NCBI GenBank assembly: GCA_964608675.1 | Contig: CAZSOZ010000003.1 | Coordinates: 10,900-74,899 of the forward strand | Source of the DNA: an uncultured archaeon | GTDB lineage: Archaea > Iainarchaeota > Iainarchaeia > Iainarchaeales > 1-14-0-10-31-34 | Direction: 5' to 3' | Length of the DNA: 64,000 nucleotides | Shown here: in pieces, positions 1 through 20,917 of the stretch | How the letters are laid out: the number at the start of each line of letters is the position of its first letter | Numbering within the stretch: the stretch's first letter is position 1 | Notes under the pieces: generated by a model | Told to the model about the DNA's origin: nothing | The model's input: the letters and a program-made list of their open reading frames with translations, nothing else | Databases searched by the model: none | Made by a program: the position numbers and the translations under genes

Positions 1-3000
1 TAAAATTTGTTCTTCGCTTCCAATCAACAAATTTGTTTCAGTGAAATCTGAAATTTCTGCGTCAACTAATCCTTTAAAGGAATCAGTTAATTCAACTCCG
101 ATTATTGTTAACGGCATTTCAGTAATGTTTTTCAGAGTAATATCTCTTGTTATTCTTCTTTCAGGTTTTTTTGCATTAAAAGTTTCTTTTATTTCTGTTG
201 GCATAAAAGAAACAATGTTTTCTTTTACTTGAATTATTTTTTCTGTTGGATTGAATCCTGCTTTTTCTGCTGTAATAATTATTTCGGTTCCTGCATTTAA
301 TGGCTCAAAAGAATAAGCATAAATCCCTTTTGAATCTGTTTTTCCGATTGAAATTATTTCGTTGTCTTTTTTTATTTTAACTGTTGCTTCAATTAAATCA
401 TTTTCTTGTTTCTCAGCTAAATGTACTAATAAATTGTTTTGAATAAACGGCAGTAAATTTTTTGGGGAAGTTTCTATTTTCATGTTTTTTGCCATTGCAA
501 CTTCTGCTCTGATTGGATTAAACAATATTTTTTCTTTTCCTAAATTCAGGCTTTCTCCAAACAAACTGAAATCAATTCTGTTTGTTCCCTCGCTTTTTGT
601 TGTAAAATTAATTTTGCCTGAAATTTTTTGTCCTTTGGAAATAGTTCTTGTTGGAATAATTATTTTTCCTTCAGCGTTTTTTTGGATTCCTTCTATTTCA
701 TATGAATTTAATTCCAGTCCTTTTCCTTCTATTGCCAGTTCGCTGTTTGAATAACTTTTTTCGTTTATGCTGATTATATTGAATTCTATTTCATAATTGC
801 TTGAAATTTTTGCCGGAAACGAATCAACAATATTTGTTCTTGTTGCATTTGCTATATCTCTTACTGTAAAGCTTGTGCAAAAGTTTTCTGAACACAAACT
901 TGATGCCCCAATTTTTAATGGTTCATGCCTTGTTTCTGCATACAATGCCTGTTTTGCTGTAGTGCTTTCTGTTTCCTGTAATTCTTCGTCGAAAGGATCT
1001 CTTTGGTAGCCTGAATCAATTACCCATCCTCTGTAAGCTATTTCTAAAGGAGAACCGCTCAATAAATCTTTTACTTGAATTACTGTTTCAATTTCATATA
1101 CTCCTTCTTGAACGTCATTAAAAATCACATTTGTCCATTTAGCGTTTCCTGAAGTTAAATGGCTTGAATCAATTCCATAACCTGTATTGGGATTAAAGGT
1201 TGTTCCTTTAATTATTTTTGCGTTTGCAGCACTAATTTTTTTAATATACAAATCGTCTTTTTCCATTGTATTATTCTGGTTTTTTGTGTCTTCTCCTGTT
1301 CTTATATGAATTCCTGCTTCATTTGAATAAACTCCTTTTGGAATCATTAATTTAAATACTGCTTTGTATGTTTTTCCCTGATTGACTGTTTCGTCTTCCA
1401 GAGTTTCTCCGTTTAATTTTAGTTCCTCTAATTTTACTGCAAAAGAATTAATTGAATCCTCTAATACAATTGTTTTTTCTTCTGTTCCGTCAAACATTTG
1501 AATTGGTGCACTAATGTAATTTGAGTGCCCTGATTCATTCACTTCCAAAAAAACTTTTTTGTCTGCTCTTATATTAAAGCTTTTTTTGCCTTCAGTGTCA
1601 GTGGAATATCTTGCATATTCTTTTCCTGTAAAATAATCAATTACTTTTACTGTTGCTGACTGAATTGCCTGTTTTTCTTTATCCAATATAATTACATCCA
1701 AAGTTCCCTGCCCGATATTCAAAGTAATTGTAATATCCTGAGGTTCTTTTTCTTTTATTGTGATTTTTCGTGAATCTTTTCCTTCAAATCCTCTTTTTTC
1801 TGCACGAATAATGTATTCTCCTTCAGGAACTCTTTCAAACACTGCTTTTCCGTCAAAACCAGTTATTTTTTCTTCTCCAACAATATTCAAAGTTAATGCA
1901 TCTTTTAAGAAAATTTTAGTGTTTTCTACAGGCTGTCCTTTTTCATCCACTACACTTACATTTATTGCTCTTTTATTTGAAGGAGTTGCTTCCTTCAAAA
2001 CAAATTCAAAGTAATCCGCTGAAGGCAAAACATTTTTTGAATCAGAATTCAGATAATCAGGATGAGTGACTGAAGCAGAATAATTAATTTGCTCTGAAAC
2101 CTTAAAAATTGCATTACCGCTTGAATCAGTTCTTTTGTCTCTTAATTCTGCTCCATCTTTAAACAATTTAATTAAAGCATTTTCAATTGGATTTCCTTCA
2201 ATGTTTTTTACTTTAATTTTTATTTCTCCTATTATTCCTTCCTCTAAAACAATTTCAAATTCTTGATTCATGTTGTTTGAATTAATTGTCAAAGTTGTTG
2301 TTTGTTCCCTTGAATCATAATCTTTCCATTTTCCTGTCCAGTCGGTTGTTCTAATATAATAAGTTCCGAATGAAACTTCTGCTGAACACATTCCATTATA
2401 AGTTGAACAAGAATTTTCTTCTATTGTGCTTCCGATTGGAAGAGCCATTGCTTCTATTCCATTCAATAAATTTCCTTGTTTGTCCATTACAGTGAAATCA
2501 ATTATTCCTTTTTCTGTTTCATTTTCTTCCAAATAAATTTTGATTAAAGAAGTGTCTGCAGTAAAATCACAGTCTTCGCAGGTTTTTCCGAATGGTTCAG
2601 CTAAAATTGTTCCGCAGTCTGCAGGAACATCATTTAATTGAGTTGAACCAGTGTTTACGGTTATTGTTTCATTCCATTCGTTGTTCTGGGAACAATTAAA
2701 TCTTACAGTTAATTCTTCTTCAAGGAGTTCGTTTCCTTTTCCTAAAAGCTGGACTTCAATTGGCTGCATTACGCTTGGATTTAATTCAATTGTTCCGCTT
2801 TTTTTTTCTGCATCAAATTTTTTTGTTTCTTTTTTGAATCCTGTTTTTTCTGCGCTGACAGTAAACTCTTTTCCAATAACAACATTTAATTCAGCTTTTC
2901 CGTCTTCATTTGTCTGAACAATTTTTTTTTCTTCATTAACATAATAAGTTATTACTGCGTCTTCAACAGGAACGCTTCCATCATTTACAGTTAATTCAAA

Positions 3001-3216
3001 TGAAGTGGTTGTTTGAAGAATGCCTTCTCCTGACAAAATAAAATAAATTCCGGTTAAAAGTGCAAGCAGTAAAATCAAAAAAACAGGAAAGGAAGGAATG
3101 CTTTTTGATTCAATAAAATCAATGGCTTTATATACAGGAATTCCTGCTTTATCCAAGCCATCCATTAAATCATAATATTTTTCTTCTATTCCGGAATAAA
3201 TCTCTTTTACACCCAT
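1..3216 (-). CDS. Giant surface protein paralog (partial, continues beyond window start). It has an N-terminal cytoplasmic module plus signal-anchor and beta-sandwich repeats.
   Basis: No complete minus-strand ORF is listed for 1-3216 although there is a continuous reading frame. Hand translation from the ATG at 3214-3216 gives MGVKEIYSGIEEKYYDLMDGLDKAGIPVYKAIDFIESKSIPSFP followed by a hydrophobic stretch. This N-terminus is clearly paralogous to that of the 2481-aa ORF (EIY..IE.K.Y..D.LE.KG.PVY..ID.IE.K.IP.FP then a TM segment). Confidence 0.6.
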   Translation of the reverse strand, partial: MGVKEIYSGIEEKYYDLMDGLDKAGIPVYKAIDFIESKSIPSFPVFLILLLALLTGIYFILSGEGILQTTTSFELTVNDGSVPVEDAVITYYVNEEKKIVQTNEDGKAELNVVIGKEFTVSAEKTGFKKETKKFDAEKKSGTIELNPSVMQPIEVQLLGKGNELLEEELTVRFNCSQNNEWNETITVNTGSTQLNDVPADCGTILAEPFGKTCEDCDFTADTSLIKIYLEENETEKGIIDFTVMDKQGNLLNGIEAMALPIGSTIEENSCSTYNGMCSAEVSFGTYYIRTTDWTGKWKDYDSREQTTTLTINSNNMNQEFEIVLEEGIIGEIKIKVKNIEGNPIENALIKLFKDGAELRDKRTDSSGNAIFKVSEQINYSASVTHPDYLNSDSKNVLPSADYFEFVLKEATPSNKRAINVSVVDEKGQPVENTKIFLKDALTLNIVGEEKITGFDGKAVFERVPEGEYIIRAEKRGFEGKDSRKITIKEKEPQDITITLNIGQGTLDVIILDKEKQAIQSATVKVIDYFTGKEYARYSTDTEGKKSFNIRADKKVFLEVNESGHSNYISAPIQMFDGTEEKTIVLEDSINSFAVKLEELKLNGETLEDETVNQGKTYKAVFKLMIPKGVYSNEAGIHIRTGEDTKNQNNTMEKDDLYIKKISAANAKIIKGTTFNPNTGYGIDSSHLTSGNAKWTNVIFNDVQEGVYEIETVIQVKDLLSGSPLEIAYRGWVIDSGYQRDPFDEELQETESTTAKQALYAETRHEPLKIGASSLCSENFCTSFTVRDIANATRTNIVDSFPAKISSNYEIEFNIISINEKSYSNSELAIEGKGLELNSYEIEGIQKNAEGKIIIPTRTISKGQKISGKINFTTKSEGTNRIDFSLFGESLNLGKEKILFNPIRAEVAMAKNMKIETSPKNLLPFIQNNLLVHLAEKQENDLIEATVKIKKDNEIISIGKTDSKGIYAYSFEPLNAGTEIIITAEKAGFNPTEKIIQVKENIVSFMPTEIKETFNAKKPERRITRDITLKNITEMPLTIIGVELTDSFKGLVDAEISDFTETNLLIGSEEQIL

Positions 3217-3322: not shown

Positions 3323-5116
3323 TCAGCTTAAAGGTTTGCATCCTCCGGTGCTTTCTCCTATGCCGAAATCAGTTCCTTCGCTGAATTCATATCTTTCACA
3401 AATCCATTCATTTCTGTTGCAGGAATTGTTTGTTTCATTTTGCAGTCCGCAGGTTGTGCTGTTAACAAAAAATTGTTTTGTTTGATGAAATTTTTCTTCA
3501 GTTGAATTTGGAGTAAATTTGTTGTCAACAATTTTAATTACATAAACTGGTTCTTTTGTTTTGTCTATAATATAATTCTTGTTTTTTTCTTTGAATGCAA
3601 TGTTCACTTCAACTTTTGTTACTTCAGTGCAGGTTCCGTAATCTGCACTATAGTTGTCTGAAAAATCAGAAAAGCAAGGGCTGTCTTCTGAAGTCTTCTG
3701 AATTACTTCTCCTTGTTCATTTAATCCTATTCCATATTTTCCCCATGCATTCCCCCATTCCATAGGACAGCTTCCATCAACATTTGCTCCATAAGAATAT
3801 TCTGTTGCATTATCTAATTGAATGCTGTTAATTCCTTTTTGATTTATTTTAACTGAATTTCTTGCCCAGTCTTCTATTTTAATTGAAACAGAACTTTGGT
3901 TTGAAAGCATGCATGAAAAAGCAGAAGAAGAAATATTTTCTGCTTCATCCAAAATGAATTCATCTTTTGTTCCGTTTACTTTTGGGTCAAGATAATTTTC
4001 TGATGAATAATTGTTTCTTATAATTTCGCATAATCTTCTTGCAGTTAATTCCCTTAAAGCCTGCTGTTCGCTTGTTCTGTTTCCCATTAAAAATTCATCT
4101 ATTACAGGAATTTGCTGGTCTGCTTCTTGTTCAGTGCACATTCCTCTTTCTGCCATGCTTGAACTGCAAAAAATTTCTGTTTGTGTTTGATAAGCGTTTC
4201 CTGAAGGGCAGGGAACATCCATGTTTTTTTTTAGCGGAGAAACAAAAGGATTTTTTCTTATATTGCAGTACCCTGGATCACAGAAACCTAATTTCATTTC
4301 TTCTATTTCGTTGTGAATTCTTAAAGAAAACAACCCGTAATTTTCTTTCCATGTGTTTGCTTCTTCTTTTTCAAACTCTAATGCCAGTGCTCTGGATTCA
4401 GCCAAAGCTTTAAACAACCTGATTGGAATATAAATTTTTATGTTTCCTTTTGGAAAAATTGATTCCTGCAAAACCCTGTCAGTTCTTGGATTATAAATTT
4501 TTATTTGTGGAAAAGATTCATAGGTTTCCTCACTTATTTCTTCTATTTTTAAATTCAAATAAAATGTTCCAATACAATTTTTTGGGTTTCCGTTTTCGCA
4601 TTCAACTACTTCAAAAAAATTTCCTGAATCAACGCTTTTTTCAAACATTTTTTGCAGGGATTCAGTTAAAATTCTTCTCTGTTCTTCTGAAGTTTTTCCT
4701 TTATGAACTATTGAAATTTCATAAGGTCCCACAAACCTTTTTTGAGGCCATGATTCAATTAATGCATTGCTGATTTGCTCTGTGAATGCTGTTCCTCCTC
4801 CTGCTCCAAAAAATCTTTCTCCAAAGCGTTCTTTCATTTCATTAAAAGAGTCATCCAAAGGATAAATTGTTATTTCATTTTGTTGTACAAAAAAATATGA
4901 TTCCATTGTTTTTCTTAAAGAATAATTAAATGTCTGCAGTGCTTCTGCCCTGCTTAAGTCTGCCATTGCCTGCATTTCTGCTTGTTCTTCTATATTAGAA
5001 ATTAATTCTGTTCTGTCTCTTTCTGCTTTAATCATTGTCTGAACAATCATTGCAGTCAATAAAATTAATACAAATGAAACCAAAGCAGTAAACAAAGTGA
5101 ATCCTTTTTTATTCAT
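3323..5116 (-). CDS. Large (597 aa) prepilin-like secreted protein with a class-III/type-IV-pilin-like leader
   Basis: The N-terminus MNKKG|FTLFTALVSFVLILLTAMIVQ is a short basic leader, then Gly, then a roughly 20-aa hydrophobic segment, which is the prepilin-peptidase substrate architecture. A large Cys-containing hydrophilic body follows. The gene lies between the two giant paralogs. Confidence 0.6.
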   Translation of the reverse strand: MNKKGFTLFTALVSFVLILLTAMIVQTMIKAERDRTELISNIEEQAEMQAMADLSRAEALQTFNYSLRKTMESYFFVQQNEITIYPLDDSFNEMKERFGERFFGAGGGTAFTEQISNALIESWPQKRFVGPYEISIVHKGKTSEEQRRILTESLQKMFEKSVDSGNFFEVVECENGNPKNCIGTFYLNLKIEEISEETYESFPQIKIYNPRTDRVLQESIFPKGNIKIYIPIRLFKALAESRALALEFEKEEANTWKENYGLFSLRIHNEIEEMKLGFCDPGYCNIRKNPFVSPLKKNMDVPCPSGNAYQTQTEIFCSSSMAERGMCTEQEADQQIPVIDEFLMGNRTSEQQALRELTARRLCEIIRNNYSSENYLDPKVNGTKDEFILDEAENISSSAFSCMLSNQSSVSIKIEDWARNSVKINQKGINSIQLDNATEYSYGANVDGSCPMEWGNAWGKYGIGLNEQGEVIQKTSEDSPCFSDFSDNYSADYGTCTEVTKVEVNIAFKEKNKNYIIDKTKEPVYVIKIVDNKFTPNSTEEKFHQTKQFFVNSTTCGLQNETNNSCNRNEWICERYEFSEGTDFGIGESTGGCKPLS

Positions 5117-5150: not shown

Positions 5151-8100
5151 TTACTCGTTTTTTTCTTTTATTGCTTTTTGGTATATTTCAATTAGTTCCT
5201 GGCTTAACATTTCCGGTTCTGATTCACATGAATCTGAATCAAGTCTTTCTGAATTCTTTATGTTTGCTAAATTTTCGGATGCAACTTCAGAATAAGTGTA
5301 AATTGGTTTTCCTGTATTATATCCTGCTTTTATTTTAACTTTGTATGTTTTTCCTTTTTCAAATTCTATTGCATTTAATTCTGCTTCAGGTTCATTGATT
5401 TTGTCATAGTCGCCCATTAATGCATTTGCAAGCATCCATCCTGCTATTCCTCCAGCCATTGTTCCTCCGCTTCTCAAAAGCCCTTTGGCAAGCCTTGACC
5501 ATTTCGGATTTTTTGCTGAAAATGCTTCCAGTTTTGTTTGTTTGGAAACTGCTTGTTCTTGTCCTAATTGTTTTGTTATTGCTTTTTGTGATGCTCCTGA
5601 AGGGGCTTTTATTGTTTTTTTTGCTTGACTGATGTCATCAACTGTTTTATCTACAAACTTGTTTTTCATTTCTAAAAGTTTTTTTCCTTCAGGGGTTGCA
5701 GGATTTGCTTTTGCATCAACTTTTGCTCCCCAGTCTTCAATTCTTTTTATTAATCCTGTTTCAGCGTCTCCTGCGATTCCGTCAATTATAAAAGAAGGAT
5801 TTCTTCCGCTTCCAAGCCCTCCGACAGTATTTCTAAATGTTTCATCTACAAACATTTGAGCATTAATTCCTCTTCCCTGAACTCTTGTTTTTCCTATAGC
5901 TTTAATTAATTCATCATAAGCTGAATCAAATCCAGTATAATTAGGATCGGTTATTCCTTCTATTAAAATTCTTTTAGATCCTGTTATAGGCACTTTTATT
6001 TCAATAAATCTTTTTCCGGCAACATCAATTGTTTTTCTGAATCCAGGCACTTTAATTGGCTTTGCTGTGTCTGCATAAGTTCCTATTTTTGTTATTTCTG
6101 TTTTTGTTAAAGTTTTTTTGGCGCCATTGTATCCTGAAATATCTTTTTTTATTAATGAAAATTCGTCAATTAATTCTTTGTCTCCGATTGAAGCTAAAGC
6201 GTCTGCGGTTTCTTTTGCTTTTTTTGCTTCCTCGCTTAAAGGAAGAACATTTTTTATAGTTTCTTTTGCGCCTTGATTGATTGCATGAAGTTTAACGGTT
6301 TCCCTGAAAAACTCGTCGTTGCTTAATCCTGTTCCTTTTTGGACTTCTTCTAGTTCGCCTGCATCAATTCCTATTGATTTTAATCCTGTTTTAAATGAAT
6401 TTTCAGTTATTTCTTTTACTTCTTTTCCTGAAGAAAAAGCAGCAATTCCTATTGCAGGAGCTGTTCCAAAAAGCATTTCTTTTGCAATCATTCCTGCTCC
6501 AAGGGTTCCGCCTGTTGCTGCAGCAGTAATTGCAAACCCTGCAATAGAACCTATTCCGTATCCAACCAAACCCCATGCTTTTCTTTCATTTATCTGGCTT
6601 TGCCTTTGAGCTGAAGGGCTTTCTTTTGGATGCTTTAAATAATATGCATTCATTAAAACTTCAAACGGAATTTTGTTTGGTTCTCCCTTCCAGTCAATTG
6701 TTGCATAATAGTTTCCGGGCTTGCTTATTTCTTTGCTTCTTTCAATGAATTCAATTGGGCTGATTGAACATACTCCAAACTGCAGGGTTTTTTCTTTTAA
6801 TCCTGTGACATTTAATTTTAATTTAGAGTTTTTTGCCAGCCTTGGGTTTTCTGAGCCAGTAAAACAAAGCTTGAATTCAAATTCATAGTTTGTGCCTGCT
6901 TCCTTCCATTCCACGTTGTTTAAATTAAATTCTGTTTCTCCTTTGTTGGTTATTTCTCTTCCGTCAGAATACTTAAAGACGGTTTCATTTTTTTGTATTC
7001 CCTGCAGGTTTTCATTAACAAAATCAAGAGAAAGTTCTGCTTCAGGAGCATTTAATTTGCTTGACATTTTTAAGTCAACACAGTTTTCTGCATTAGGATA
7101 AAGATTAACAAAGTTTTCTGTTTCTATCCACTTCAAGTTTGCTATTTCAGAAATATTTTTAACTGAACCTAAAATCAAATAATCCATTTCACTTGAAATG
7201 CATCCTTGTTCTATTTTTCCGTTTTTCAGGTTTGAAATAATTAAGCCTGCTTCTCCTGCAATATCGTTTTGTATTTCTTCGCTTGAATTAAAATACTTAT
7301 CAGTTATGTATACGTCTATTTGTTTTGGTGTATTGCTTGCTCCGCTTCTTTCTATTTCTATTTTTACTATTCCTTTTGTTTGATCAAAGCTTCCTTTGCT
7401 TACTCTTATTAAATTATTTTCCTGATTTTGTGTTACTCTTGCTCCTTGATTGTCTTTGAATAAGGTTTTTGAAAAACTTTTTTGGAGTTCTTCTATTTCA
7501 GGATTTCTTATTATTAATCCAAGCCAGCTTCCGTTTCTTCTGCTTGGACTGTAGTCTTCGTTTACCGGCAGAAAGTTCATGAAATTTTGTATTCTGTTAT
7601 AGCATTCTGGTGTTTCTTCTCTGCTTCCTTCAATTTTTAACAGCAGGCTGACTGAATCTTTTCTTATTTCGTTTCCGTTTACTGCTACTGCTCCAATAAA
7701 TTTTGCCTGATATCTTCCGCATCCTCTTATTGACGGCAGTAACAGCAAATGTTCTCCGAATGATTTTCCTGCTGTTGAATACAATTCTTGTTCTGTTTCA
7801 CCGTGCCTTATATACAGGCTTTGTATTTCTTTTGCTCCTAATTTTTTTATTTCGCTTTCAAGCATGCTTGTTGTTAAATTATCGTTTTTGAAATAAAATT
7901 CAAATGATTCTGTTGTTATTCCCATTGCTCCGAATGAACAATAATCTTCAATTAAATTGCATTTTGCTCCTAAATTTTCAACGCTTTTTACATCTGATAT
8001 TCTTAACTGCGCTTTTCTTAATTCTTCTTCTATTTTTTCTGCTAAAAATCTTCCTAATTGTTGTGCATCACAGTAGCCTTGTCCGCAGTTTTCTGACTGC

Positions 8101-11100
8101 TTTGGAAAATAAACTGCTGTTGTTTCTGGTTTATCGCAGTAATCTAATGTTGTTTCGTTTTCCCATTTGCAGGGCTCGTTTTCGTTTCCGCATTCCCCTG
8201 AACCTTTTCCTATTGCTATTTCTATTTCAAAAGGCATTGAATGAATTGTTTTTGCAGGCATTGATTTTTCTCCTATTCCTATTACTTTTATTTTTATTTT
8301 TTGGTTTGCTTCTGATTCTTTTGTCAGCCTTAAAATGAATTCATCTTTTGTTCCTGGAGGCAGAGTGTATCCTGAATCAATTAAAGTTATGTTATTTCCT
8401 CCGATTTTTTCCGGTTCAATTCCTATTATTCTTACTGGTTCAACGCAGTTGTTTACAATATTTAAACTTTTGTCTATTGAACCAAATTCTGCGTTCGGAG
8501 AATTGAACAGCATGTCGTCTGACCATGCTTCCAAGCAACTCCAGCCTGCGCTTACATTTACAAATACATTTATTTCTCTTAACGCATATTGTCTTCCGTT
8601 GATTGTTCCTGACACAATTATTTTTCCTGTTATTCTTTGGTTTTCTGATGTATTGGTTTCTGCTTGAATTACTGCAGGCGGAATTAATGCCATTCCTCTT
8701 CTTAATTCTGGAACATTTCTTCCTTCACTGTATCCATAACTTACTGTTATTTTTGTGTTTGCAGGTTTATTGAATTCTGTTGCAAAAGTTAAATTTGTAA
8801 TGTCTGCTAAACCTGTATTTCTTATATACAGCGGATGAACTGCTGTTGCTTTTTCTTTTTGTTTGCTTTGAGTCAGCCATAATACAACTGAAGGACTTGC
8901 TTCTAATGCAAACATTTCATGCCATAAAATTATTCTTGCAGGAATGCTTTTGGTTAACTGCCTTGACGCCAAAAACAAATCGTAATCTAATTCATTTTGT
9001 CTTGCATAATTTCTTTGTATTTTGTTTATTACTCCTATTTTGATTGTTTTTACTTCGTCTTTTGCTATTTTTATTGTTCCTGAACTGAATTCTATTTCTT
9101 TGTCTGAATGGTTTTTTGGATGAACTTCTAATTCAAACTGCAGTGCCTGATTGCAGTTGTTTTTTAATCCTAATTCAAGTTCTTTTGAATTGCCTCCTGC
9201 TCCAATCAAGTATTCTTTTAATTCTGTTTTATCAAATTCAAGGCAGTCTTCTTTGAGTTTCTGGTTGTAGTTTGCTTTAATTTTTGTTTTTGTTTTTATT
9301 GGAATTCCTTCAATGAATCCTGTAATTATTATTTCTGCTTCTCCGTGGAATACTGCTGTATTTGTTCCTGAATACTCTAATATTATTTCTGTCTGGTTTT
9401 CTTCTTTTGCTGAAAGAACTGCAGGAGGATTAACGCTTAACTTAAATTGTTTTGGGAAATTTCCTGAAGGAATTATTTCTGCAGTAATTCCTTCAATTGT
9501 TTTTTCAGTTAAATTTTTTATTTGAATTCTTTTTGATGTAAACAAGTCTCCTGAAGGAATATTTATTTCTGCTTCTGATTCTATTTCAAGTCCTTCTCCA
9601 AATTCAATCTGGAGTTCTTTTTCTTTTGTTTTAAATTTGTCTGCTTTTATTTTAATTAAATAATTTCCTGCTTCAAGATTGTTTTCTATTCTGTATTTTC
9701 CGTTTCTTCCGTTTAATTCGTTTCCTGTAATTGTTTTTTCAAGCCTTCCTTTAATATTATAAAATTCTATTTCCGCGTTTTCTATTCCTTTTCCCTGATT
9801 GTCTTTTACGTTTATTTCAAAATCCTGTCCTTTTCTTGCTGTTTCTGGAGCTTGTATTTCCATTTTCTGTTCTTCAAATACTTTAAAATAAAAGTTTTCT
9901 GTCATTGAATCTTTTGGAGTCAATGCAATTGATTTAATTGAACTTTCCCCTGTTTTTTTTGCTTTAAAGTATACTCTTATTTTTGTTCCTTCTCTTGAAA
10001 TAATTTCCTTGAATTCAATTGAAGTATCGCTTTTATTGTTGTCTATAAACTGGCTGAATGAATTAACTTCTTTTCCTGTAAAACCTATTTTTGGGTTTTC
10101 TTTTGAAGTAGTAATCCTGAAAGTTGTTTCAACTGAAAGTCTTGCTTCTGCATTCATTTCCAGTGCATAAACTTTTCCTTTTACTGCAAAAAAATCTTTT
10201 TTGTCATATACTCTTTCGTCTTCGTCTTTCAAAACATATTCAATGCATGCTTCTTCCATGCATTCAGGTTCTGAATCATAGACTTTTATTTCTATTTCTT
10301 TTGTGTCTGCATATAATGCTTGTTTTTCTTCTGTGGTTTTTTCTTTTTCAAGAACTTCATCAAAGGGATTCCTGTAATAGTATCCGTCTGCATAACTCCA
10401 TGCCCTGAACTGCATTCTTATTGTTTGATGTGAAATTAATTCTCTTGCTTTAATTCTTACTTTAATTATTTTTGTTCCTTCTGGTTCATTGAAATATAAT
10501 TCAATAAACTTGTTTAGTTTTCCTCCTTGTCCTGAATTAGAGTAATCTATTTCCTGGTAGCCCGGGGAAGGATTTGGAGTAAAGCTTCTTCCATAAAAAT
10601 ACTTGTTTGTTGGTGCATCAAATCCTGTTATTCCTATGTCTTCAGAGTCAGCGTATTTAATTGAATCAATTCCTGTTCTGAAATGAATTCCTCCTGATTC
10701 AAGGCCTTTGCTCCATTCAGTTTTAAATTTTAAAATGTAATCTTTTCCTTTGGTTATTCCTTCAACTTCGTTTCCTGCAATATCATATGCTCCTAAAAAT
10801 TCAATGTTTGGAGTTTTTTCTGTGTATTTTCTTGCATCTAAATCAACTTCAATCTCTGTTTTGCCTTCTAAGTTTATTTCTTCTGAGTATTTTGTTCCAT
10901 CTTCTTTTGTTAATTCAAATTCAACAAAATTGCTTTCTCCTGCTTCAAATAAAATTTCTTCTTCTATTTCTCCGTCAAATAATATTTCTCCTGCCTGATT
11001 TTTAATTATCAGTGTTCCTTTTGTTATTTTTCCTTGTGCATCAAAAAATTTAATGCTTTTAACTGAATCCTTTTTTTCCAGTTTTATTATCATGTTGTTA

Positions 11101-12596
11101 TTGTTTTGTGATTTTATTTCAAGGGATTGTGTTCCCTGAAGCAAATCTTTTACTGCTTTAACTGTTATTTCTGCATCTCTAGGTACAGTTAAAGTGAATT
11201 TTCCGTTTTCGTTTGTTTTTTTTGCTTCGATTCCAAGAGGAACAAAAAATGCTTCATTTGAATCTCTTTTAGTAAAATAAAGTGTTGCGTTTGCAACAGG
11301 TTTTTCATTAAAGTCAACTACTATTATTGCTAATTCTCCTGAATTTTTTGCTGTTGCTTTAGTTAATTGAATTATTTCTGTTTCTTTTTCTATTTTTTTT
11401 GTTTCCGGAAGATATCCTTCTTTTTCTGCTCCTAAATAATATTCTTCTTCTTTTTCAAGTCCTTTGAATTCAGTTAACCCTTCATACAAAGTCGTGCTGG
11501 AATTAATTATTTTTTTTTCTGAATCAAACAAAGTTATTTTTGCACCAACTGCAGGATTTTGTGTTTCAGCATAAACTGCTTTTATTTTGATTTCTTTTCC
11601 GCCTTTTTCTAATTCTACTGCGCCTAAATTTTCTTCTTCGCTTCTTAAAGTAAATTCATTTGATTCAAATAATTTGTAGCCTTCTTTTTCTGCCGTAAAT
11701 CTTACTGCAATTCCTTTCGGAAAATTTTCAGAATAAACTCCTTCTGAAATAATTTTTTCGTCTATTAAGTCATTGCTTTCTGCGTCATAAACTTTTATTT
11801 TTGCGTTTTCAATTAATTCTCCTGTTTCTTTGTCAAACAAAGTTATAATCAGATTGCTTTCTCCTTCAAATGCCAGTTCTTTTGGGTTAAGGTAAATTGA
11901 TTTTGTTTCTTCTGATTCAAATGAAATTACTCCTGTGTGTTCATAATACGAGTCTGCTTCTGCTGTAATATATATGTCTTCTTCTAATGGCACATCCAAA
12001 AATTCAATTAATCCTTCTGAATTTGATACTGCGTCTTTTATTATTCCTTTCCATTCAATTGATGCTCTTACATTTGAAACAGGGGTTTCTGTTTCATAAT
12101 CATAAAATTTTATTTTTGCTTTAATTGTATTAATTATTTTTTTTAAATTTAATTCTGCTGTTTCTTTTTTGTTGATTACTTTTATTTTTGTTTCATCTGA
12201 TTCAAATCCCTGTTTTTGTGCAGTTATTGTGAGTTCTGCTCCTCCTTCTACCTTTACTTCAATCAGGTCTCCATTGTTTTTTATTCCTTTAAATATTTCT
12301 TTTTCTGTTGAATCAACTATTTTTATATTCACCTGGCTTAATCCTTTTCCGTATGAATCCACTAAATTTAATTCAATTTGCGCATCAAAGTTTGCTCCAA
12401 TTACTCCAAAGCCGAACACAACAAACAATAAAACTGCAATTAATGCAATGCTTAAAGGAAAAAAGGGAATTCCTTTTTCTTCTATTGGATCGATTAATGT
12501 ATAAACAGGAAGCCCTTTTTCTTCAAGAAAATCAAAGACTGAATAAAACTTGTCTTCTATTTCTGTGTATATTTTTCCTAATGTTTCTGAAATCAC
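5151..12596 (-). CDS. Giant (2481 aa) membrane-anchored surface protein with tandem beta-sandwich (Big/CarboxypepD_reg-like) repeats, a Cys-rich module and C-terminal Gly-zipper hydrophobic segments
   Basis: Single uninterrupted ORF. The N-terminus is a roughly 45-aa hydrophilic module followed by a TM segment (FFPLSIALIAVLLFVVFGFGVIGA). Many repeats follow, of roughly 80-100 aa each with alternating hydrophobic/polar beta-strand patterns. Late in the protein there are Gly-rich hydrophobic stretches (GYGIGSIAGFAITAAATGGTLGAGMIA and GGTMAGGIAGWMLANALMG). Confidence 0.8.
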   Translation of the reverse strand: MISETLGKIYTEIEDKFYSVFDFLEEKGLPVYTLIDPIEEKGIPFFPLSIALIAVLLFVVFGFGVIGANFDAQIELNLVDSYGKGLSQVNIKIVDSTEKEIFKGIKNNGDLIEVKVEGGAELTITAQKQGFESDETKIKVINKKETAELNLKKIINTIKAKIKFYDYETETPVSNVRASIEWKGIIKDAVSNSEGLIEFLDVPLEEDIYITAEADSYYEHTGVISFESEETKSIYLNPKELAFEGESNLIITLFDKETGELIENAKIKVYDAESNDLIDEKIISEGVYSENFPKGIAVRFTAEKEGYKLFESNEFTLRSEEENLGAVELEKGGKEIKIKAVYAETQNPAVGAKITLFDSEKKIINSSTTLYEGLTEFKGLEKEEEYYLGAEKEGYLPETKKIEKETEIIQLTKATAKNSGELAIIVVDFNEKPVANATLYFTKRDSNEAFFVPLGIEAKKTNENGKFTLTVPRDAEITVKAVKDLLQGTQSLEIKSQNNNNMIIKLEKKDSVKSIKFFDAQGKITKGTLIIKNQAGEILFDGEIEEEILFEAGESNFVEFELTKEDGTKYSEEINLEGKTEIEVDLDARKYTEKTPNIEFLGAYDIAGNEVEGITKGKDYILKFKTEWSKGLESGGIHFRTGIDSIKYADSEDIGITGFDAPTNKYFYGRSFTPNPSPGYQEIDYSNSGQGGKLNKFIELYFNEPEGTKIIKVRIKARELISHQTIRMQFRAWSYADGYYYRNPFDEVLEKEKTTEEKQALYADTKEIEIKVYDSEPECMEEACIEYVLKDEDERVYDKKDFFAVKGKVYALEMNAEARLSVETTFRITTSKENPKIGFTGKEVNSFSQFIDNNKSDTSIEFKEIISREGTKIRVYFKAKKTGESSIKSIALTPKDSMTENFYFKVFEEQKMEIQAPETARKGQDFEINVKDNQGKGIENAEIEFYNIKGRLEKTITGNELNGRNGKYRIENNLEAGNYLIKIKADKFKTKEKELQIEFGEGLEIESEAEINIPSGDLFTSKRIQIKNLTEKTIEGITAEIIPSGNFPKQFKLSVNPPAVLSAKEENQTEIILEYSGTNTAVFHGEAEIIITGFIEGIPIKTKTKIKANYNQKLKEDCLEFDKTELKEYLIGAGGNSKELELGLKNNCNQALQFELEVHPKNHSDKEIEFSSGTIKIAKDEVKTIKIGVINKIQRNYARQNELDYDLFLASRQLTKSIPARIILWHEMFALEASPSVVLWLTQSKQKEKATAVHPLYIRNTGLADITNLTFATEFNKPANTKITVSYGYSEGRNVPELRRGMALIPPAVIQAETNTSENQRITGKIIVSGTINGRQYALREINVFVNVSAGWSCLEAWSDDMLFNSPNAEFGSIDKSLNIVNNCVEPVRIIGIEPEKIGGNNITLIDSGYTLPPGTKDEFILRLTKESEANQKIKIKVIGIGEKSMPAKTIHSMPFEIEIAIGKGSGECGNENEPCKWENETTLDYCDKPETTAVYFPKQSENCGQGYCDAQQLGRFLAEKIEEELRKAQLRISDVKSVENLGAKCNLIEDYCSFGAMGITTESFEFYFKNDNLTTSMLESEIKKLGAKEIQSLYIRHGETEQELYSTAGKSFGEHLLLLPSIRGCGRYQAKFIGAVAVNGNEIRKDSVSLLLKIEGSREETPECYNRIQNFMNFLPVNEDYSPSRRNGSWLGLIIRNPEIEELQKSFSKTLFKDNQGARVTQNQENNLIRVSKGSFDQTKGIVKIEIERSGASNTPKQIDVYITDKYFNSSEEIQNDIAGEAGLIISNLKNGKIEQGCISSEMDYLILGSVKNISEIANLKWIETENFVNLYPNAENCVDLKMSSKLNAPEAELSLDFVNENLQGIQKNETVFKYSDGREITNKGETEFNLNNVEWKEAGTNYEFEFKLCFTGSENPRLAKNSKLKLNVTGLKEKTLQFGVCSISPIEFIERSKEISKPGNYYATIDWKGEPNKIPFEVLMNAYYLKHPKESPSAQRQSQINERKAWGLVGYGIGSIAGFAITAAATGGTLGAGMIAKEMLFGTAPAIGIAAFSSGKEVKEITENSFKTGLKSIGIDAGELEEVQKGTGLSNDEFFRETVKLHAINQGAKETIKNVLPLSEEAKKAKETADALASIGDKELIDEFSLIKKDISGYNGAKKTLTKTEITKIGTYADTAKPIKVPGFRKTIDVAGKRFIEIKVPITGSKRILIEGITDPNYTGFDSAYDELIKAIGKTRVQGRGINAQMFVDETFRNTVGGLGSGRNPSFIIDGIAGDAETGLIKRIEDWGAKVDAKANPATPEGKKLLEMKNKFVDKTVDDISQAKKTIKAPSGASQKAITKQLGQEQAVSKQTKLEAFSAKNPKWSRLAKGLLRSGGTMAGGIAGWMLANALMGDYDKINEPEAELNAIEFEKGKTYKVKIKAGYNTGKPIYTYSEVASENLANIKNSERLDSDSCESEPEMLSQELIEIYQKAIKEKNE

Positions 12597-12688: not shown

Positions 12689-13282
12689 TTATATTTTGTT
12701 TTTAATGCTTTCAGGAATTCCTTTGACTGACAAATAATACCATGCAAAATAGTATCCTGCAATCAACACAAACAATGAAATCCTGAACAATAAATCGTGT
12801 GCTAATTCAATTGTCTGCAAATCTGTTTTTTTAATCAAAAAAACAGTAATAATTATTCTTGCAGTATTAAACAAAAAGGTTGTAATGCCTGCTCCGATTA
12901 CCCCGATTGCTTTTTTTTCTTTTGTTATTTCTCCTGTTGCAATTACTGCTGAAGCCAGCACAATGAATTCCATTAATCCAGTGCATAAATAACTAATTTG
13001 AATTGAATAATTTTCAAACAAAATTAAAACAGGTTCCTGAAAAACAATTTTTCCTCCGGTAAAAACTGCAACTGCTTTTGCAGTAATTAATTCAATCCAT
13101 TCCAAAGGAATAAATGAAATCAAAAAAGAAAGAAAAACATAAAAGAAAACCAGAATTAAAACAAACTTTCCTACCTGAACTATTTTTTTGTCCATTAAAT
13201 TTAATTTAATCAGCAAAGTATTAAATATTCTTTTTTTTATAATTTTTTGCATGGCTGGAGTAATTGATTCATTTGCATTCAT
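12689..13282 (-). CDS. Putative exosortase/archaeosortase-family polytopic membrane protein (short form)
   Basis: 197 aa with multiple TM segments. It has a Cys inside a TM-flanked motif (ISYLCTGLMEF) and a downstream FNTARIIITVFL (Asn..Arg) motif. These resemble the conserved Cys/Arg/Asn core of the exosortase/archaeosortase family. This is a motif-level resemblance only. The true start may be an internal Met, because the ORF as listed overlaps the divergent gene by about 95 bp. Confidence 0.45.
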   Translation of the reverse strand: MNANESITPAMQKIIKKRIFNTLLIKLNLMDKKIVQVGKFVLILVFFYVFLSFLISFIPLEWIELITAKAVAVFTGGKIVFQEPVLILFENYSIQISYLCTGLMEFIVLASAVIATGEITKEKKAIGVIGAGITTFLFNTARIIITVFLIKKTDLQTIELAHDLLFRISLFVLIAGYYFAWYYLSVKGIPESIKNKI

Positions 13283-14246
13283 TCTAAAAAAAAGCTTTGA
13301 CTTAAAGTTATGGCTTTATTTTCTGCTTATTTTAATTATTGCAGTTGTTTCTTTTGGAATACTCTTTTTTGTTTTTCTTTTTATTGGATTTCTTTTATTT
13401 TTAATTCTGCAGTTTTCGCTTGCAGGATTTTTGTTTTATTTTATTTTTTTTATTTTGTTTTTGGTTTCAATGTTTGCTTTGGGTTCAGCGGTAAATGGAG
13501 TTTTATTGAATTTTGCAAGAGATTACATTCATTCAGGCAAAATCGATTTAGGGCTGGCTTTCAATAAAACTAAACCAAGAATTTTCACTGCAGTTAAAGT
13601 TGAGGTAATTGTCGGAATTTTCTTTTTTGCAGTTTTTTTATTATTTTTTCTTCCGTTTATTTTTTCTTTAATTGAATTAATTAATACTGCTTCTCTTAGA
13701 TTTCTGATTGCGCCTAATTCATCTCAAATGCTTTCCCTGTTTTTTTCTGTTTTAGGTTCTCTTTTGCTGGGTTTTCTTTTGTATGGAATTTTCAGCATTA
13801 TTGTTGCTCCGTTCAGCATTCTTTACAGGCAGATTCCTTTTTTTGAATCCCTTTCAGCGGTTGATTCAATTAAAAGAGCAGTTTTTCTTGCAAGAAAAAA
13901 TTATTTTTCTAATTTAGGTTTTGCGGTTCTGGCTTTCATTATTACAGGTGTTTTTACTTTTGTTTACATGATTTTTTCTTTTGTTTTAGCTTTAACTAAT
14001 GCAAGTCAGATTATATTTCTGATAATACTTGCAATTTTTTTAAGAATAATTTTAGAGTTTGCTTTTGTTTTGTGGACTACGGTTTTTAATTATCTGGTTT
14101 ATGTTAAAGTTTATGAATTCAATTCAACTGAACAAAAATTTTTTCAGCCGAAAACTTTTCTAAAAACAAAACCTAAAACAAAATCAAAATCATTAAAGCC
14201 AAAGCCTTCAACAAAAACCAGAGTCAAGCCCGGCACAAAAAAATAA
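13188..14246 (+). CDS. Polytopic membrane protein with a Lys/Pro-rich C-terminal tail, function unknown
   Basis: 352-aa ORF with about 8 hydrophobic segments and a tail KTKPKTKSKSLKPKPSTKTRVKPGTKK. It is the first gene of the plus-strand pilus operon. The start is uncertain (Met22 at 13251 is possible). Confidence 0.5.
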   Translation: MSIKFNLISKVLNILFFIIFCMAGVIDSFAFILKKSFDLKLWLYFLLILIIAVVSFGILFFVFLFIGFLLFLILQFSLAGFLFYFIFFILFLVSMFALGSAVNGVLLNFARDYIHSGKIDLGLAFNKTKPRIFTAVKVEVIVGIFFFAVFLLFFLPFIFSLIELINTASLRFLIAPNSSQMLSLFFSVLGSLLLGFLLYGIFSIIVAPFSILYRQIPFFESLSAVDSIKRAVFLARKNYFSNLGFAVLAFIITGVFTFVYMIFSFVLALTNASQIIFLIILAIFLRIILEFAFVLWTTVFNYLVYVKVYEFNSTEQKFFQPKTFLKTKPKTKSKSLKPKPSTKTRVKPGTKK

Positions 14247-14305: not shown

Positions 14306-16585
14306 ATGAAGATTGGAAACTTTGAAGTAGGAGATTATGCTGTTAAGGAATCAGGCGGAAAACGTCATTTAATTTTTGACTGCAGAAACTGCGTTTATTC
14401 TTCTTCTTTGACTGATGATAAAGCATGCCGTTATCATGTTATTTCTATTTTATCTCAGATTGAAGCAGACTTAATTGTTTTGGCTGAAGTTTATGAAAGA
14501 GTTTATAACCAGCATCAAACTAAATTGCTTAAAGAGATTGCAGAACTTATCCCGCGATTTGAATTAGAAAACTTGTGGGGTGTTGAAAATTTAGGTGAAT
14601 CCGGAACCGAATGCGAAAAATTGTTTGGATTAAGGCATGATCTTTTAGTAAAAATTTCGCATGACTTAATTGCATTTGATCCAATACTTTCTTACATTAC
14701 TTTGCTTTCCGAAATACAAAAAGAAAAACAAAAAATGAAAAACGAGAATTATGCTTCCTGTTCCAAACCATTCATTCAAACTTTATTGTATTTAAAACAG
14801 GAATTCGAAAAAACTGAATTGATTTCAAAAGCAAAACAAATTATTGCAAAATTAGAGGAAATGCCTGACACAAAACAATTATATTACTCTTTTTTTGAAG
14901 CTCAAGTCAAGCCTTCTTTTATTGGTTCAAGATTAATGTTTGAAAAAGCAGAAACACTTGAATTATTGGATGAATATTCTGTTAAAAAATCCAACGTGCA
15001 AATTTTTAAGCATCCGAACAAAGTTGAAAAACTTTATTTTTTGAATCCGCCTGAATATACTTTGCCTCCGGAAAAATATTTTGTGTTAAGCAAAACAAAA
15101 GAAATTGTTGCCACTTATCAGCCCGGCAAAACTTCTTTGTCAACTATTGCCAAAAGCAGAAAATATTTTGAAAGAGTTTATGAATCAACTATTTTTGATA
15201 TTGCAAAACAAAACAATATTTCTTTGTCTAAAGAAGAAGTAAAAGAATTAAGTGAAATTGTTGCAAGATATACTGTTGGTTACGGAATCCTTGAAATTTT
15301 GTTGAGCGACAGAAATCTTACAGATATTTATTTGGATTCTCCGATAGGACAAAAACCTTTGTATGTTGTTCACTCTGAATACGGCCAATGCCAAACCAAC
15401 ATTTTGTATACAGAAGATGAAGCTGAATCAATGGTTTCAAAATTAAGGGCTATGTCAGGCAGACCGTTTGATGAAGCGCATCCTGTTTTGGATTACGATT
15501 TGCAGGAACTGGAAACAAGAACTGCTGTAATTGGAAAACCTTTGGCTCCTGATGGAATTGCTTTTGCTTTTCGTTTGCATAAAATGACCCCATGGACTCT
15601 TCCTCAGTTTATTGACAAAAAATTTATTTCTCCTTTGGGAGCAGGCCTTTTGTCTTTTTTTATTGACACTCAGTCAACTATGCTTGTAACTGGTTCTCGT
15701 GGTTCTGGAAAAACTTCTTTGCTTGGAGCATTAATTCTTGAAATTTTGCAGAATGCAAGAATTATTGTTCAGGAAGACACTTTGGAAATTCCTGTTTCTT
15801 ACATGAAGGAAATAGGCTTTAATATTCAGAGAATGAAAACAAGGGCTCCAATTGGTACAGCTAAAAGCGAAACAGAAGTTTCTCCTGAAGATGCTTTAAG
15901 AACTGCGTTAAGGCTTGGTGATTCTGCTTTGGTTTTAGGTGAAGTTCGTTCAACTGAAGCAAGAGTTTTGTATGAAGCAATGCGTGTTGGTGCAGCAGGA
16001 AACATTGTTTTGGGAACAATTCATGGTGATTCAGCTTACAGTGTATGGGACAGAGTTGTAAATGACTTGAATGTTCCAAGCACTTCTTTTAAGGCAACTG
16101 ATATAGTTGTTGTTGCCCGTCCAATTCGTTTTGGGGGCTCTCTGGAAAGGCAGAGAAGAGTAGTTCAATTAACTGAAATAAAAAAGGAATGGATTGAAGA
16201 CCCTTTGCATGAAGGAGGCCTGCTTGATTTAATGCTTTTTGATGCATCAAAAAACAAGCTTGAATTACAGGAAGACAATTTAAAGGAATCAACTTTGTTT
16301 GATAGAATCCATAAAACTTATGGTTTGAGTATGACTGAAATGTGGGATTCAATTAAAATGAATTCAAATTCCAAGGCTTTTATGGTTGAATTAAAAAACA
16401 AACTGGGTTTCCCTGAATTGCTTGAAGCAGAAAACACTGTTCCTGCAGTCAACAAATTAATGTTAATGAAACAAAACCAGCTTGAAGAAAACGGTTCAGT
16501 TGACTTTGAAGAAGTTTTAGGCAAATGGAAATTCTGGTATAAAAATGATTTCGTTAAAAGACTGCATTCAAGAAGGAAAAAATAA
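14306..16585 (+). CDS. FlaI/GspE/VirB11-family secretion ATPase (type IV filament assembly ATPase) with a roughly 350-aa N-terminal extension
   Basis: Walker A is LVTGSRGSGKTSLLGALI, the Asp box/Walker B is IIVQED and GEVRSTEA matches the GEIRG-like motif. The N-terminal extension carries a Cys cluster, CRNCVYSS..DKACRYH. An ATG start follows an AGG Shine-Dalgarno. Confidence 0.85.
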   Translation: MKIGNFEVGDYAVKESGGKRHLIFDCRNCVYSSSLTDDKACRYHVISILSQIEADLIVLAEVYERVYNQHQTKLLKEIAELIPRFELENLWGVENLGESGTECEKLFGLRHDLLVKISHDLIAFDPILSYITLLSEIQKEKQKMKNENYASCSKPFIQTLLYLKQEFEKTELISKAKQIIAKLEEMPDTKQLYYSFFEAQVKPSFIGSRLMFEKAETLELLDEYSVKKSNVQIFKHPNKVEKLYFLNPPEYTLPPEKYFVLSKTKEIVATYQPGKTSLSTIAKSRKYFERVYESTIFDIAKQNNISLSKEEVKELSEIVARYTVGYGILEILLSDRNLTDIYLDSPIGQKPLYVVHSEYGQCQTNILYTEDEAESMVSKLRAMSGRPFDEAHPVLDYDLQELETRTAVIGKPLAPDGIAFAFRLHKMTPWTLPQFIDKKFISPLGAGLLSFFIDTQSTMLVTGSRGSGKTSLLGALILEILQNARIIVQEDTLEIPVSYMKEIGFNIQRMKTRAPIGTAKSETEVSPEDALRTALRLGDSALVLGEVRSTEARVLYEAMRVGAAGNIVLGTIHGDSAYSVWDRVVNDLNVPSTSFKATDIVVVARPIRFGGSLERQRRVVQLTEIKKEWIEDPLHEGGLLDLMLFDASKNKLELQEDNLKESTLFDRIHKTYGLSMTEMWDSIKMNSNSKAFMVELKNKLGFPELLEAENTVPAVNKLMLMKQNQLEENGSVDFEEVLGKWKFWYKNDFVKRLHSRRKK

Positions 16586-19500: not shown

Positions 19501-19559
19501 TTTCTTAAAACTAAAGCTTTAAATATTTCTTTGGTTTTCTTTTTAGTGGTGATGTTTTT

Positions 19560-20099: not shown

Positions 20100-20204
20100 A
20101 TTTTTAAGAAAAGTTTTAGCAAAATGTACAGCGTAAAAAACCGTACTCTCAAACTTATTTTTTTTTAATTAACTTTAAATACCAGTTTAGCCTTATTTTT
20201 TGTT

Positions 20205-20354
20205 ATGGAATTATTAAAGGAAAATAAAGCGCAAAGCGAATGGAATTCTGTTTACATGCTGATAGTTTTGATTATTGCTGTACTGTTGTTGATTACTGTT
20301 ATTAAGCCGATGTTTGAAAAAAGCCAGCAGATAAACAAGCCGATAGGAGGCTGA
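20205..20354 (+). CDS. Small (49 aa) single-TM ORF inside the pilin operon
   Basis: Hand-found ORF below the 60-aa track cutoff: MELLKENKAQSEWNSVYMLIVLIIAVLLLITVIKPMFEKSQQINKPIGG, ending in TGA. Its end overlaps the AGGAGG Shine-Dalgarno of the next pilin gene. Confidence 0.25.
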   Translation: MELLKENKAQSEWNSVYMLIVLIIAVLLLITVIKPMFEKSQQINKPIGG

Positions 20355-20358
20355 TTTT

Positions 20359-20907: not shown

Positions 20908-20917
20908 GGTAATTTGA

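Follow-up and report, generated by a model that had tools for sequence, protein, structure and literature searches.

Why should a giant archaeal surface protein that is already anchored in the membrane at its N-terminus carry two further glycine-rich hydrophobic stretches close to its C-terminus? This question is raised by giant-A, a 2,481-residue protein encoded in a 64,000-nucleotide stretch of DNA (hereafter the window) from an uncultured member of the Iainarchaeota, a group of DPANN archaea (GenBank assembly GCA_964608675.1, contig CAZSOZ010000003.1, forward-strand positions 10,900 to 74,899). The first stretch is a putative helical hairpin and the second a single predicted helix, here called the LAN helix; they are separated by a long basic middle region, and the protein finishes with a small end domain. 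Comparison with relatives suggests that the two stretches are most likely parts of one extracellular, disulfide-stapled, three-helix hydrophobic unit. Our preferred interpretation, held tentatively, is that the giant-A tail is a membrane-active element that would insert from outside into the membrane of another cell, whether a partner or prey, a function that we infer from sequence.

The original prediction placed two glycine-rich hydrophobic stretches at window positions of about 6450-6610 and 5390-5460. Both were found, at 6435-6563 (peptide GYGIGSIAGFAITAAATGGTLGAGMIAKEMLFGTAPAIGIAAF, residues 2012-2054) and 5412-5468 (peptide GGTMAGGIAGWMLANALMG, residues 2377-2395). Giant-A contains only three runs of at least 16 residues free of D, E, K, R, N, Q, and H, namely its N-terminal transmembrane (TM) helix, residues 2007-2038, and residues 2041-2057. 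Glycine content reaches 23% in the first stretch and 32% in the second, compared to 7.7% overall. Four of the six glycine-zipper motifs in the protein (defined as [GAS]xxxGxxxG or GxxxGxxx[GST]) start within the two stretches, at residues 2012, 2016, 2025, and 2378, even though these stretches account for 3.9% of its length; descriptively, they qualify as TM glycine zippers. Neither the hairpin nor the second helix is amphipathic (hydrophobic moment 0.07-0.17 at a mean hydrophobicity of 0.56-0.58), and both would require burial or lipid. The zipper helices are thus genuine, as had been proposed, and the first stretch, described as long enough for a helical hairpin, appears as two low-confidence helices in our structure model. 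The expected hydrophilic, lysine-rich C-terminal region of roughly 430 residues was likewise recovered: the 427 residues following the first stretch have a grand average of hydropathy of -0.54 and contain 12.9% lysine. As anticipated, stretches of this kind do not belong to a plain adhesin repeat.

We then asked how widely these elements are conserved. An exhaustive HMMER search with giant-A residues 1282-2481, reporting representatives at 50% clustering, identified 118 representatives, most of them 2,400-3,400 residues long (family members are numbered with P below; P0119, from the NCBI/Logan data, is identical to giant-A). They originate from metagenome-assembled genomes (MAGs) and single-amplified genomes named Candidatus Diapherotrites or Iainarchaeum, including Ca. 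Iainarchaeum andersonii, together with a few labeled Micrarchaeota, which identifies the source of giant-A as one of the DPANN Iainarchaeota. Identity to giant-A is 57-64% over the full length for P0120-P0123 and P0001 and 24-37% for the rest. Nearly every full-length member combines an N-terminal TM helix with a 30-55-residue hydrophobic stretch at around residues 2000-2300, directly past the conserved core, and nearly all carry both hydrophobic elements. The hairpin has the family motif [KR]..Y-x3-C-x6-C(N), followed by a glycine-rich hydrophobic run and then [FL]DCG[IL]P; the regular expression Y-x3-C...DCG[IL]P matches 66 of 119 sequences. The second helix, about 250-640 residues past the hairpin, has the motif K.L.KG..(C)G..(L)(A)N.(A)G..AY and is followed by a FEKGxTYKV strand. 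Giant-A shares the leader and TM helix, the conserved core (residues ~600-1990) with its invariant cysteines, the second-helix motif with G2386, and the FEKGxTYKV strand; the hairpin cysteine pair is the only family feature for which it has no counterpart. As judged from these alignments, both hydrophobic elements are phylum-wide architectural features of the giant-A family of Iainarchaeota. One close relative, P0122 (L002/L006, 10001-17215), ends 42 residues past the second helix; its terminal beta strand, RLDxDxC motif, and C2457 are missing but C1943 is retained, possibly through a frameshift, assembly truncation, or recent pseudogenization.

Such conservation bears directly on the simplest alternative, namely that the stretches are chance low-complexity glycine/alanine-rich segments with no specific role. 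Across the whole protein, the number of glycine zippers is indeed not above that of shuffled sequences (6 versus 4.8 ± 2.3). However, position, motif, and covarying cysteines are conserved in more than 60 sequences that are 24-64% identical to giant-A, which effectively refutes this explanation and leaves it a negligible probability.

The distribution of cysteines connects the two elements. No family member has just one of the two hairpin cysteines, which lie 26-40 residues apart. Within the closest clade, both are present in five sequences and both are absent in giant-A and P0121, the only family members to lack them; since P0120, the sister of P0121, retains both and giant-A and P0121 are not sisters, this double loss happened twice independently. 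Members with hairpin cysteines have two, three, or five of them, and an odd number goes together with a cysteine in the second helix: 30 plus 29 members are concordant and 3 discordant (59/62; Fisher, 6e-14). On a neighbor-joining tree built from exodomain columns only, the characters odd hairpin cysteines and second-helix cysteine change at least seven and at least eight times, respectively. A further pair, C1943 and C2457, is present in 46 members and entirely absent in 15, the one exception being a C-terminally truncated protein. The total number of cysteines is even in 51 of the 62 members, and that of the exodomain alone is odd in 43.

Strict co-loss of cysteines is expected where an unpaired cysteine is harmful, as in an oxidizing extracellular compartment. 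The simplest reading is that the covarying cysteines would form three disulfides, i.e., C1-C3 inside the hairpin, C2 to the cysteine of the second helix (C_LAN), and C1943-C2457. From this co-loss and covariation, we infer a true hairpin with the second helix packed on it, and an extreme C-terminus that lies outside and is tied to the exodomain. The two stretches had been described as separate features; the covariation points instead to one unit, most likely an extracellular three-helix hydrophobic unit held together by disulfides. If C1943 and C2457 are bonded, residues 1944-2456 of giant-A would form a closed loop.

The same pattern argues against the suggestion that the protein re-crosses its own membrane. 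In such a polytopic arrangement, the first stretch would cross once from outside to inside, residues 2055-2376 would be cytoplasmic, and the second helix would cross back, leaving only the end domain outside. The middle region would suit this topology: its isoelectric point (pI) is 9.4, compared to 5.1 for the exodomain, and across the family it is basic (pI above 7) in 43 of 62 members and cysteine-free in 59 of 62. The 30 residues preceding the second helix have a median net charge of +4 and acidic residues follow it, in line with the positive-inside rule, and C1943 and C2457 would still both lie outside. However, the strictly joint loss of the hairpin cysteine pair argues that these residues are bonded and hence on the same side, and the co-occurrence of C2 with the second-helix cysteine is expected under oxidizing conditions rather than in a membrane or the cytoplasm. 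The second helix is also poorly suited to crossing (estimated insertion free energy, dG, of +5.8 kcal/mol, with a conserved asparagine) and the flank directly after the hairpin is net negative. As the covarying cysteines link the pre-hairpin domain with the C-terminus and the hairpin with the second helix, thus placing them in one oxidizing compartment, re-crossing is disfavored and we regard a polytopic tail as quite improbable. In the 62 relatives, the middle region has 0.02 cysteines per 100 residues, whereas the exodomain and the end region have 0.95 and 1.56, respectively. This avoidance may reflect a need for the middle region to remain flexible or translocation-competent, or a cytoplasmic location.

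We estimated hydrophobicity with a simplified additive Hessa-type scale that omits positional terms. Giant-A has no segment scoring below 6.5 other than the TM helix (-3.7), hairpin (+3.1), and second helix (+5.8). In the family as a whole, the hairpin 19-mer that scores best has a median dG of +3.3 kcal/mol and is below zero in none of 79 proteins; the N-terminal TM helix has a median of -4.1 kcal/mol, and the best exodomain segment scores +7.3. Use of these values as proof of non-integration was dropped following a control on the genuine polytopic proteins of the window, about a quarter of whose TM helices score +2 to +5. Hydrophobicity alone thus neither proves nor excludes integration.

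Additional information came from the ends of related proteins, which extend 42-784 residues past the second helix. P0015 ends in NlpC/P60, Amidase_3, and Glucosaminidase domains, and P0126 in an NlpC/P60 domain; a scan of a further 30 ends detected SLT domains in three and a Glucosaminidase domain in one. These hydrolases work outside the cell on bacterial walls, which archaea of this group are not known to make. Such ends agree with an annotation-level report that DPANN MAGs encode 'large lytic murein transglycosylases' (PMC9723730) and with a report of archaeal peptidoglycan hydrolases being used against bacteria (PMC12352652). An SLT-like domain suspected at the end of P0003 (YWQESKCNP...GLCQLT) was not confirmed by Pfam or PDB sequence searches. 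Many members (P0009, P0020, P0024-P0026, P0028, P0030, P0046, and others) share a different C-terminal region of about 200 residues with the motif 'vPEALLVt..iWKS.lG....GC...CAA..L'. This domain matches SLT weakly (HHalign probability 29%) and has a lysine at the position of the catalytic glutamate; it could be a degenerate, non-catalytic, wall-binding SLT derivative.

These observations weigh on the possibility that the tail is a second anchor, with the stapled unit dipping into the producer's membrane as a re-entrant or outer-leaflet element. Fixed at both ends in the manner of an S-layer or sheath protein, the giant would then display its C-terminal domains at the cell surface. The all-outside cysteine pattern is equally compatible with this arrangement, the hydrophobicity is matched by real TM helices of this organism at the upper end of their range, basic residues occur on the N-terminal side of both elements, and an exosortase-like gene next to giant-A suggests envelope biogenesis. 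Nevertheless, an N-terminal TM anchor is already there, and the peptidoglycan hydrolases at the tail end of relatives would be kept from any bacterial wall. The uncharged glycine-rich turn and the acidic C-terminal flank of the hairpin are atypical for a hairpin inserting in cis, and giant-B, a paralog in the same gene cluster, does without such an element. We consider a second anchor rather unlikely.

We modeled residues 1880-2481 of giant-A with AlphaFold2 (AF2), obtaining a mean predicted local distance difference test (pLDDT) score of 64.6. The hairpin was modeled as two helices (1994-2027 and 2034-2054) and the second stretch as one helix, all with pLDDT below 50; helices of low confidence also make up the first ~85 residues of the middle region, to about residue 2138. 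The terminal beta domain (2399-2479) was modeled confidently. Profile searches of the 499-residue tail and of each isolated segment against Pfam (hmmscan, E up to 10) yielded no family match, including to the glycine-zipper families PF13488, PF13441, and PF05433, and NCBIfam likewise gave no family match for the tail. In PHROGs, the sole match was to a family of unknown function (E = 0.065), with no tape-measure family, and a phmmer search against PDB sequences gave no matches. Foldseek searches returned a best E value of 0.9 against PDB, with NheA and PaxB only at chance level (E ~5-7), and of 0.26 against BFVD, with one tape-measure protein at E = 4.3; no fusion protein was matched in either database. 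As the hairpin part of the model is of low confidence, fold similarity to pore-forming toxins may have escaped notice there. Kinship to pore-forming toxins or tape-measure proteins therefore found no support in sequence or fold, and neither did membership of a Pfam glycine-zipper family. Of the original interpretation, the glycine-zipper helices and the non-adhesin character stand, whereas toxin or tape-measure homology is unsupported and crossing of the cell's own membrane is disfavored.

Other searches differed in their reach. A word-indexed protein search with the 522-residue tail returned nothing, missing tail homologs that are 41-52% identical and share few 5-mers; with the full-length query or a family profile, it returned only 13 or 20 proteins, respectively, swamped by CarboxypepD_reg repeat proteins. 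The family itself came to light only in the exhaustive HMMER search. Scanning genome contigs with the tail alone recovered no relative, but a scan with a family profile succeeded. We found no description of the family or its gene cluster in a literature search. By these searches, the giant-A family is uncharacterized and Iainarchaeota-specific, and its tail belongs to no known family.

Alternatively, no membrane may be involved: the helices could form the buried core or oligomerization interface of a soluble extracellular domain, or dock on the hydrophobic N-terminal helices of the pilins encoded in the cluster and so attach the giant to a pilus-like filament. Conserved polar residues within the motifs (CN, DCGxP, LAN), disulfide staples typical of folded extracellular domains, merely marginal hydrophobicity, and the adjacent genes for pilins, a 597-residue pilin-like protein, and T2SSE/F proteins are all consistent with this. 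However, three uncharged helices of 17-32 residues with near-zero hydrophobic moment would be unusual in a soluble bundle unless fully wrapped, AF2 builds no confident globular core there, and no fold match was detected in PDB or BFVD. We judge such a soluble role unlikely, and somewhat more so than a second anchor.

Insertion from outside into a foreign membrane remains the best reading, although our confidence in it stays short of even. It is favored because an N-terminal anchor is already present, because non-amphipathic hydrophobic helices sit in a disulfide-rich secreted domain, and because wall-degrading enzymes are fused to the matching end in relatives, the last of these providing indirect support. 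In the proposed mechanism, the tail module would be the 'business end' of the giant surface protein, far from its N-terminal anchor, with the hairpin (residues 2007-2054) packing on the third helix (residues 2377-2395) outside the cell. In most relatives, the unit would be stapled by the C1-C3 and C2-C_LAN disulfides, with C1943-C2457 tying the end beta domain to the last exodomain module. The hydrophobic helices would be shielded at rest and, on contact, would insert from outside into the bilayer of a partner or prey cell, their basic flanks and the basic middle region binding anionic head groups. In some relatives, the peptidoglycan hydrolases fused at the matching end would breach the bacterial wall.

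Several observations weigh against foreign-membrane insertion. Giant-A itself lacks the hairpin staples, retaining only C1943-C2457 of the three predicted pairs, and has no hydrolase domain; its clade has a small beta domain only and no enzyme. The packing of the helices is not directly visible from the model, since both the hairpin and third helix have AF2 confidence below 50, and no sequence or structural similarity to membrane-inserting proteins was found in Pfam, PHROGs, PDB, or BFVD. The intermediate hydrophobicity of the hairpin and third helix would also allow integration in cis, and a basic, cysteine-free middle region with a +4 cluster before the third helix would suit a cytoplasmic loop. 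The Iainarchaeota, moreover, lack a cultured member that could point to a host or prey. A more elaborate version, which is possible but doubtful, is that the tail is the penetrating tip of a new archaeal contact apparatus. This would comprise a stalk of ~2,000 residues and a disulfide-latched, hydrophobic three-helix finger inserting into the membrane of a partner, whether bacterial or archaeal, with muralytic enzymes in some lineages, and would be assembled or operated with the co-encoded type-IV-pilus-like machinery and exosortase-like enzyme.

Comparison with known systems places these proposals in context. Phage tape-measure and tail-tip proteins (e.g., T5 Pb2) combine hydrophobic segments with C-terminal muralytic domains. 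Giant-A resembles them in its great length, its C-terminal glycine-rich hydrophobic segments accompanied by hydrolases (here only in relatives, i.e., P0015, P0126, and others), and its proposed role in crossing a target envelope. It differs in being anchored N-terminally, in having an exodomain rich in beta-sandwiches and disulfides rather than an all-alpha ruler, and in lacking sequence or fold similarity; disulfide staples are predicted for its family, and its gene lies on an archaeal chromosome, within a pilus-like cluster, rather than in a phage tail module. Class I viral fusion proteins, such as Ebola GP2 and ASLV Env, have disulfide-closed internal fusion loops. The likeness here is a marginally hydrophobic glycine/alanine-rich element within an anchored ectodomain, with a disulfide at its base and, as we propose, a foreign membrane as target; in contrast, the third helix of giant-A comes from ~330 residues downstream, there is no homology, and giant-A has lost the staple; no heptad-repeat or six-helix-bundle signature was noted, although no search was aimed at one. 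Like colicin-type, Bcl-2, diphtheria-T, and alpha-pore-forming toxin (alpha-PFT) domains, giant-A has an alanine/glycine-rich, non-amphipathic hairpin of ~40-50 residues followed by amphipathic helices able to shield it, although its post-hairpin helices are of low confidence, NheA and PaxB match at chance level only, and Pfam gives no match.

Three further comparisons are looser. Gly-zipper_Omp, Gly-zipper_YMGG, and Rick_17kDa_Anti proteins share GxxxGxxxG in short hydrophobic helices, but the Pfam glycine-zipper families are small lipoproteins or bacteriocins, whereas here the motif lies in the tail of a giant archaeal protein that no family HMM (hidden Markov model) matches. As in CdiA- and MARTX-like proteins, a conserved body of a giant surface protein is joined to a variable C-terminal extremity (SLT, NlpC/P60, amidase, or glucosaminidase in some members); giant-A differs in being archaeal, in being anchored by its own TM helix, and in showing no FHA, RHS, pretoxin, or immunity-gene signature. 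The giant-A gene adjoins an exosortase-family gene in most genomes, as might be expected for a PGF-CTERM or PEP-CTERM substrate, but the protein ends in a hydrophilic helix and its hydrophobic elements are internal. By analogy, phage tail-tip proteins, fusion loops, and colicin-type hairpins would be the nearest functional counterparts, none of them backed by homology or fold.

Little is known of how DPANN archaea make physical contact with other cells. If the penetrating-tip reading is true, giant-A would represent a cellular, non-viral analog of the phage tail tip, and might underlie attachment or predation by DPANN archaea at the molecular level. The tail module offers a conserved, testable architecture: three disulfides are predicted, the two hydrophobic elements must meet, and relatives have muralytic ends. 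It also connects a defined protein architecture with the murein transglycosylases and peptidoglycan hydrolases reported from DPANN MAGs (PMC9723730; PMC12352652). Even if the unit is merely a structural core or a cis-anchor, it would be a new type of extracellular domain with unusually clean cysteine covariation.

Table 1. Layout of the giant-A gene and protein and of adjacent genes in the window (aa, amino acids; res, residues of giant-A; KD, Kyte-Doolittle).
Feature	Position in window	Strand	Remarks
giant-B paralog, 2,501 aa in full	1..3216	-	C-terminus outside window
597-aa protein, immediately downstream of giant-A	3323..5116	-	pilin-like class III signal (MNKKGFTLFTAL...); weak ComGF N-terminal match
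giant-A gene, 2,481 aa, intact open reading frame	5151..12596	-	GTG start; stop codon 5151-5153
End domain, res 2396-2481 (86 aa)	5154..5411	-	small beta domain and terminal helix; AF2 pLDDT 76-88
Second glycine-zipper helix (LAN helix), res 2377-2395	5412..5468	-	G2386 invariant in family
Middle region, res 2055-2376 (322 aa)	5469..6434	-	basic (pI 9.4), K-rich, Cys-free
Folded alpha/beta sub-domain within middle region, res 2139-2349	5550-6182	-	confident in AF2 model
Hydrophobic glycine-zipper hairpin, res 2007-2054 (48 aa)	6435..6578	-	uncharged, Gly/Ala-rich; Cys-less version of family motif
Small alpha/beta domain preceding hairpin, res 1939-2004	6585..6782	-	AF2 pLDDT 75-91; holds C1943 (codon 6768-6770)
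N-terminal TM anchor, res 45-70	12387..12464	-	KD maximum 2.94; simplified Hessa dG -3.7
44-aa leader before TM, res 1-44	12465-12596	-	conserved, cytoplasmic
Exosortase/archaeosortase-family gene (197 aa), directly upstream of giant-A	12689..13282	-	PF09721, TIGR04178
T2SSE-type ATPase (759 aa) and T2SSF-like platform protein (777 aa)	14306..18918	+	divergent from giant-A
Small pilin-like genes after T2SSE/T2SSF	18994-22757		

The layout of giant-A and its surroundings is summarized in Table 1. Between the TM anchor and the tail lies an acidic exodomain of ~1,930 residues (pI 5.1) that is rich in cysteine (19 residues) and contains CarboxypepD_reg and Big-type domains. The end domain carries the conserved FEKGxTYKV strand and the RLDxDxC motif, with C2457 encoded at 5226-5228. 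Within the leader, residues E14, G28, G42, and P44 are invariant across the giant-A family. A pre-TM leader of ~44 residues is common to giant-A, giant-B (window ~3085-3216), and giant-C (L001, 19418-), and that of giant-A contains an internal duplication (DFLEEKGLPVY / DPIEEKGIPFFP). The sequence 'KG|IP' and the hydrophobic helix behind it bear a loose resemblance to a class III (prepilin-type) cleavage site, although the leader would be unusually long.

The window has a GC content of ~31% and also contains genes for a PAC2 proteasome chaperone, an enzyme of the geranylgeranyl-reductase type, and pilins with class III signals (...KGQ...). The minus-strand order exosortase-like, giant-A, pilin-like, giant-B is that of the family, and is conserved at orthologous loci with 26-60% protein identity. 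These neighbors, together with T2SSE/F, are conserved across 38 archaeal genomes. In a survey of 41 related loci, many of them truncated, giant-B matches were present in all, exosortase-like genes in 28 (mostly directly upstream of giant-A), pilin-like genes in 26, and T2SSE/F genes in 18. A Logan contig with identical genes supplied the remainder of giant-B and the start of the third giant. A comparison with the paralog had been suggested as a check of the original prediction, its complete lack of the stretches being named as a refutation. Giant-B indeed has neither hydrophobic element in the four genomes checked; this absence is uninformative given that giant-B is a different family member, whereas the orthologs of giant-A nearly all keep the module. 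One locus with the whole cluster (T2SSF, T2SSE, exosortase-like, giant-A, pilin-like, and giant-B), L015 (JAFCBY010000012.1), is labeled 'Candidatus Falkowbacteria bacterium', which is probably a binning error in a public MAG.

We also considered whether giant-A is a substrate of the adjacent archaeosortase/exosortase. This was rejected, as the C-terminal tripartite signal (motif, TM helix, and basic cluster) is absent: the C-terminus (...SQELIEIYQKAIKEKNE) is hydrophilic and the last hydrophobic element finishes 86 residues ahead of the stop. A 1,490-residue protein encoded at 24154-28626 (plus strand) has an N-terminal signal-like helix and a C-terminus (...PSLPESLLGLSLFFVSLIACMFLIQFSVKKKK) consisting of a motif, TM helix, and basic tail, with no Pfam domain found. 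By its sequence features, it is a better candidate substrate than giant-A for the 197-residue exosortase-like enzyme.

A second, shorter T2SSE (471 residues) and T2SSF (331 and 261 residues) set is encoded at 31393-34597 on the minus strand. The genome thus has at least two type-IV-pilus/archaellum-like assembly systems, of which only the 759/777-residue pair is linked to the giants. Finally, the longest open reading frames of the exosortase-like gene (12689-13282, minus strand) and the divergent multi-TM gene (13188-14246, plus strand) overlap by ~95 nucleotides. Gene calls on related contigs start later, giving 162-213 residues for the exosortase-like protein and 331 for its neighbor; translation therefore probably begins further downstream than the earliest in-frame start codons.

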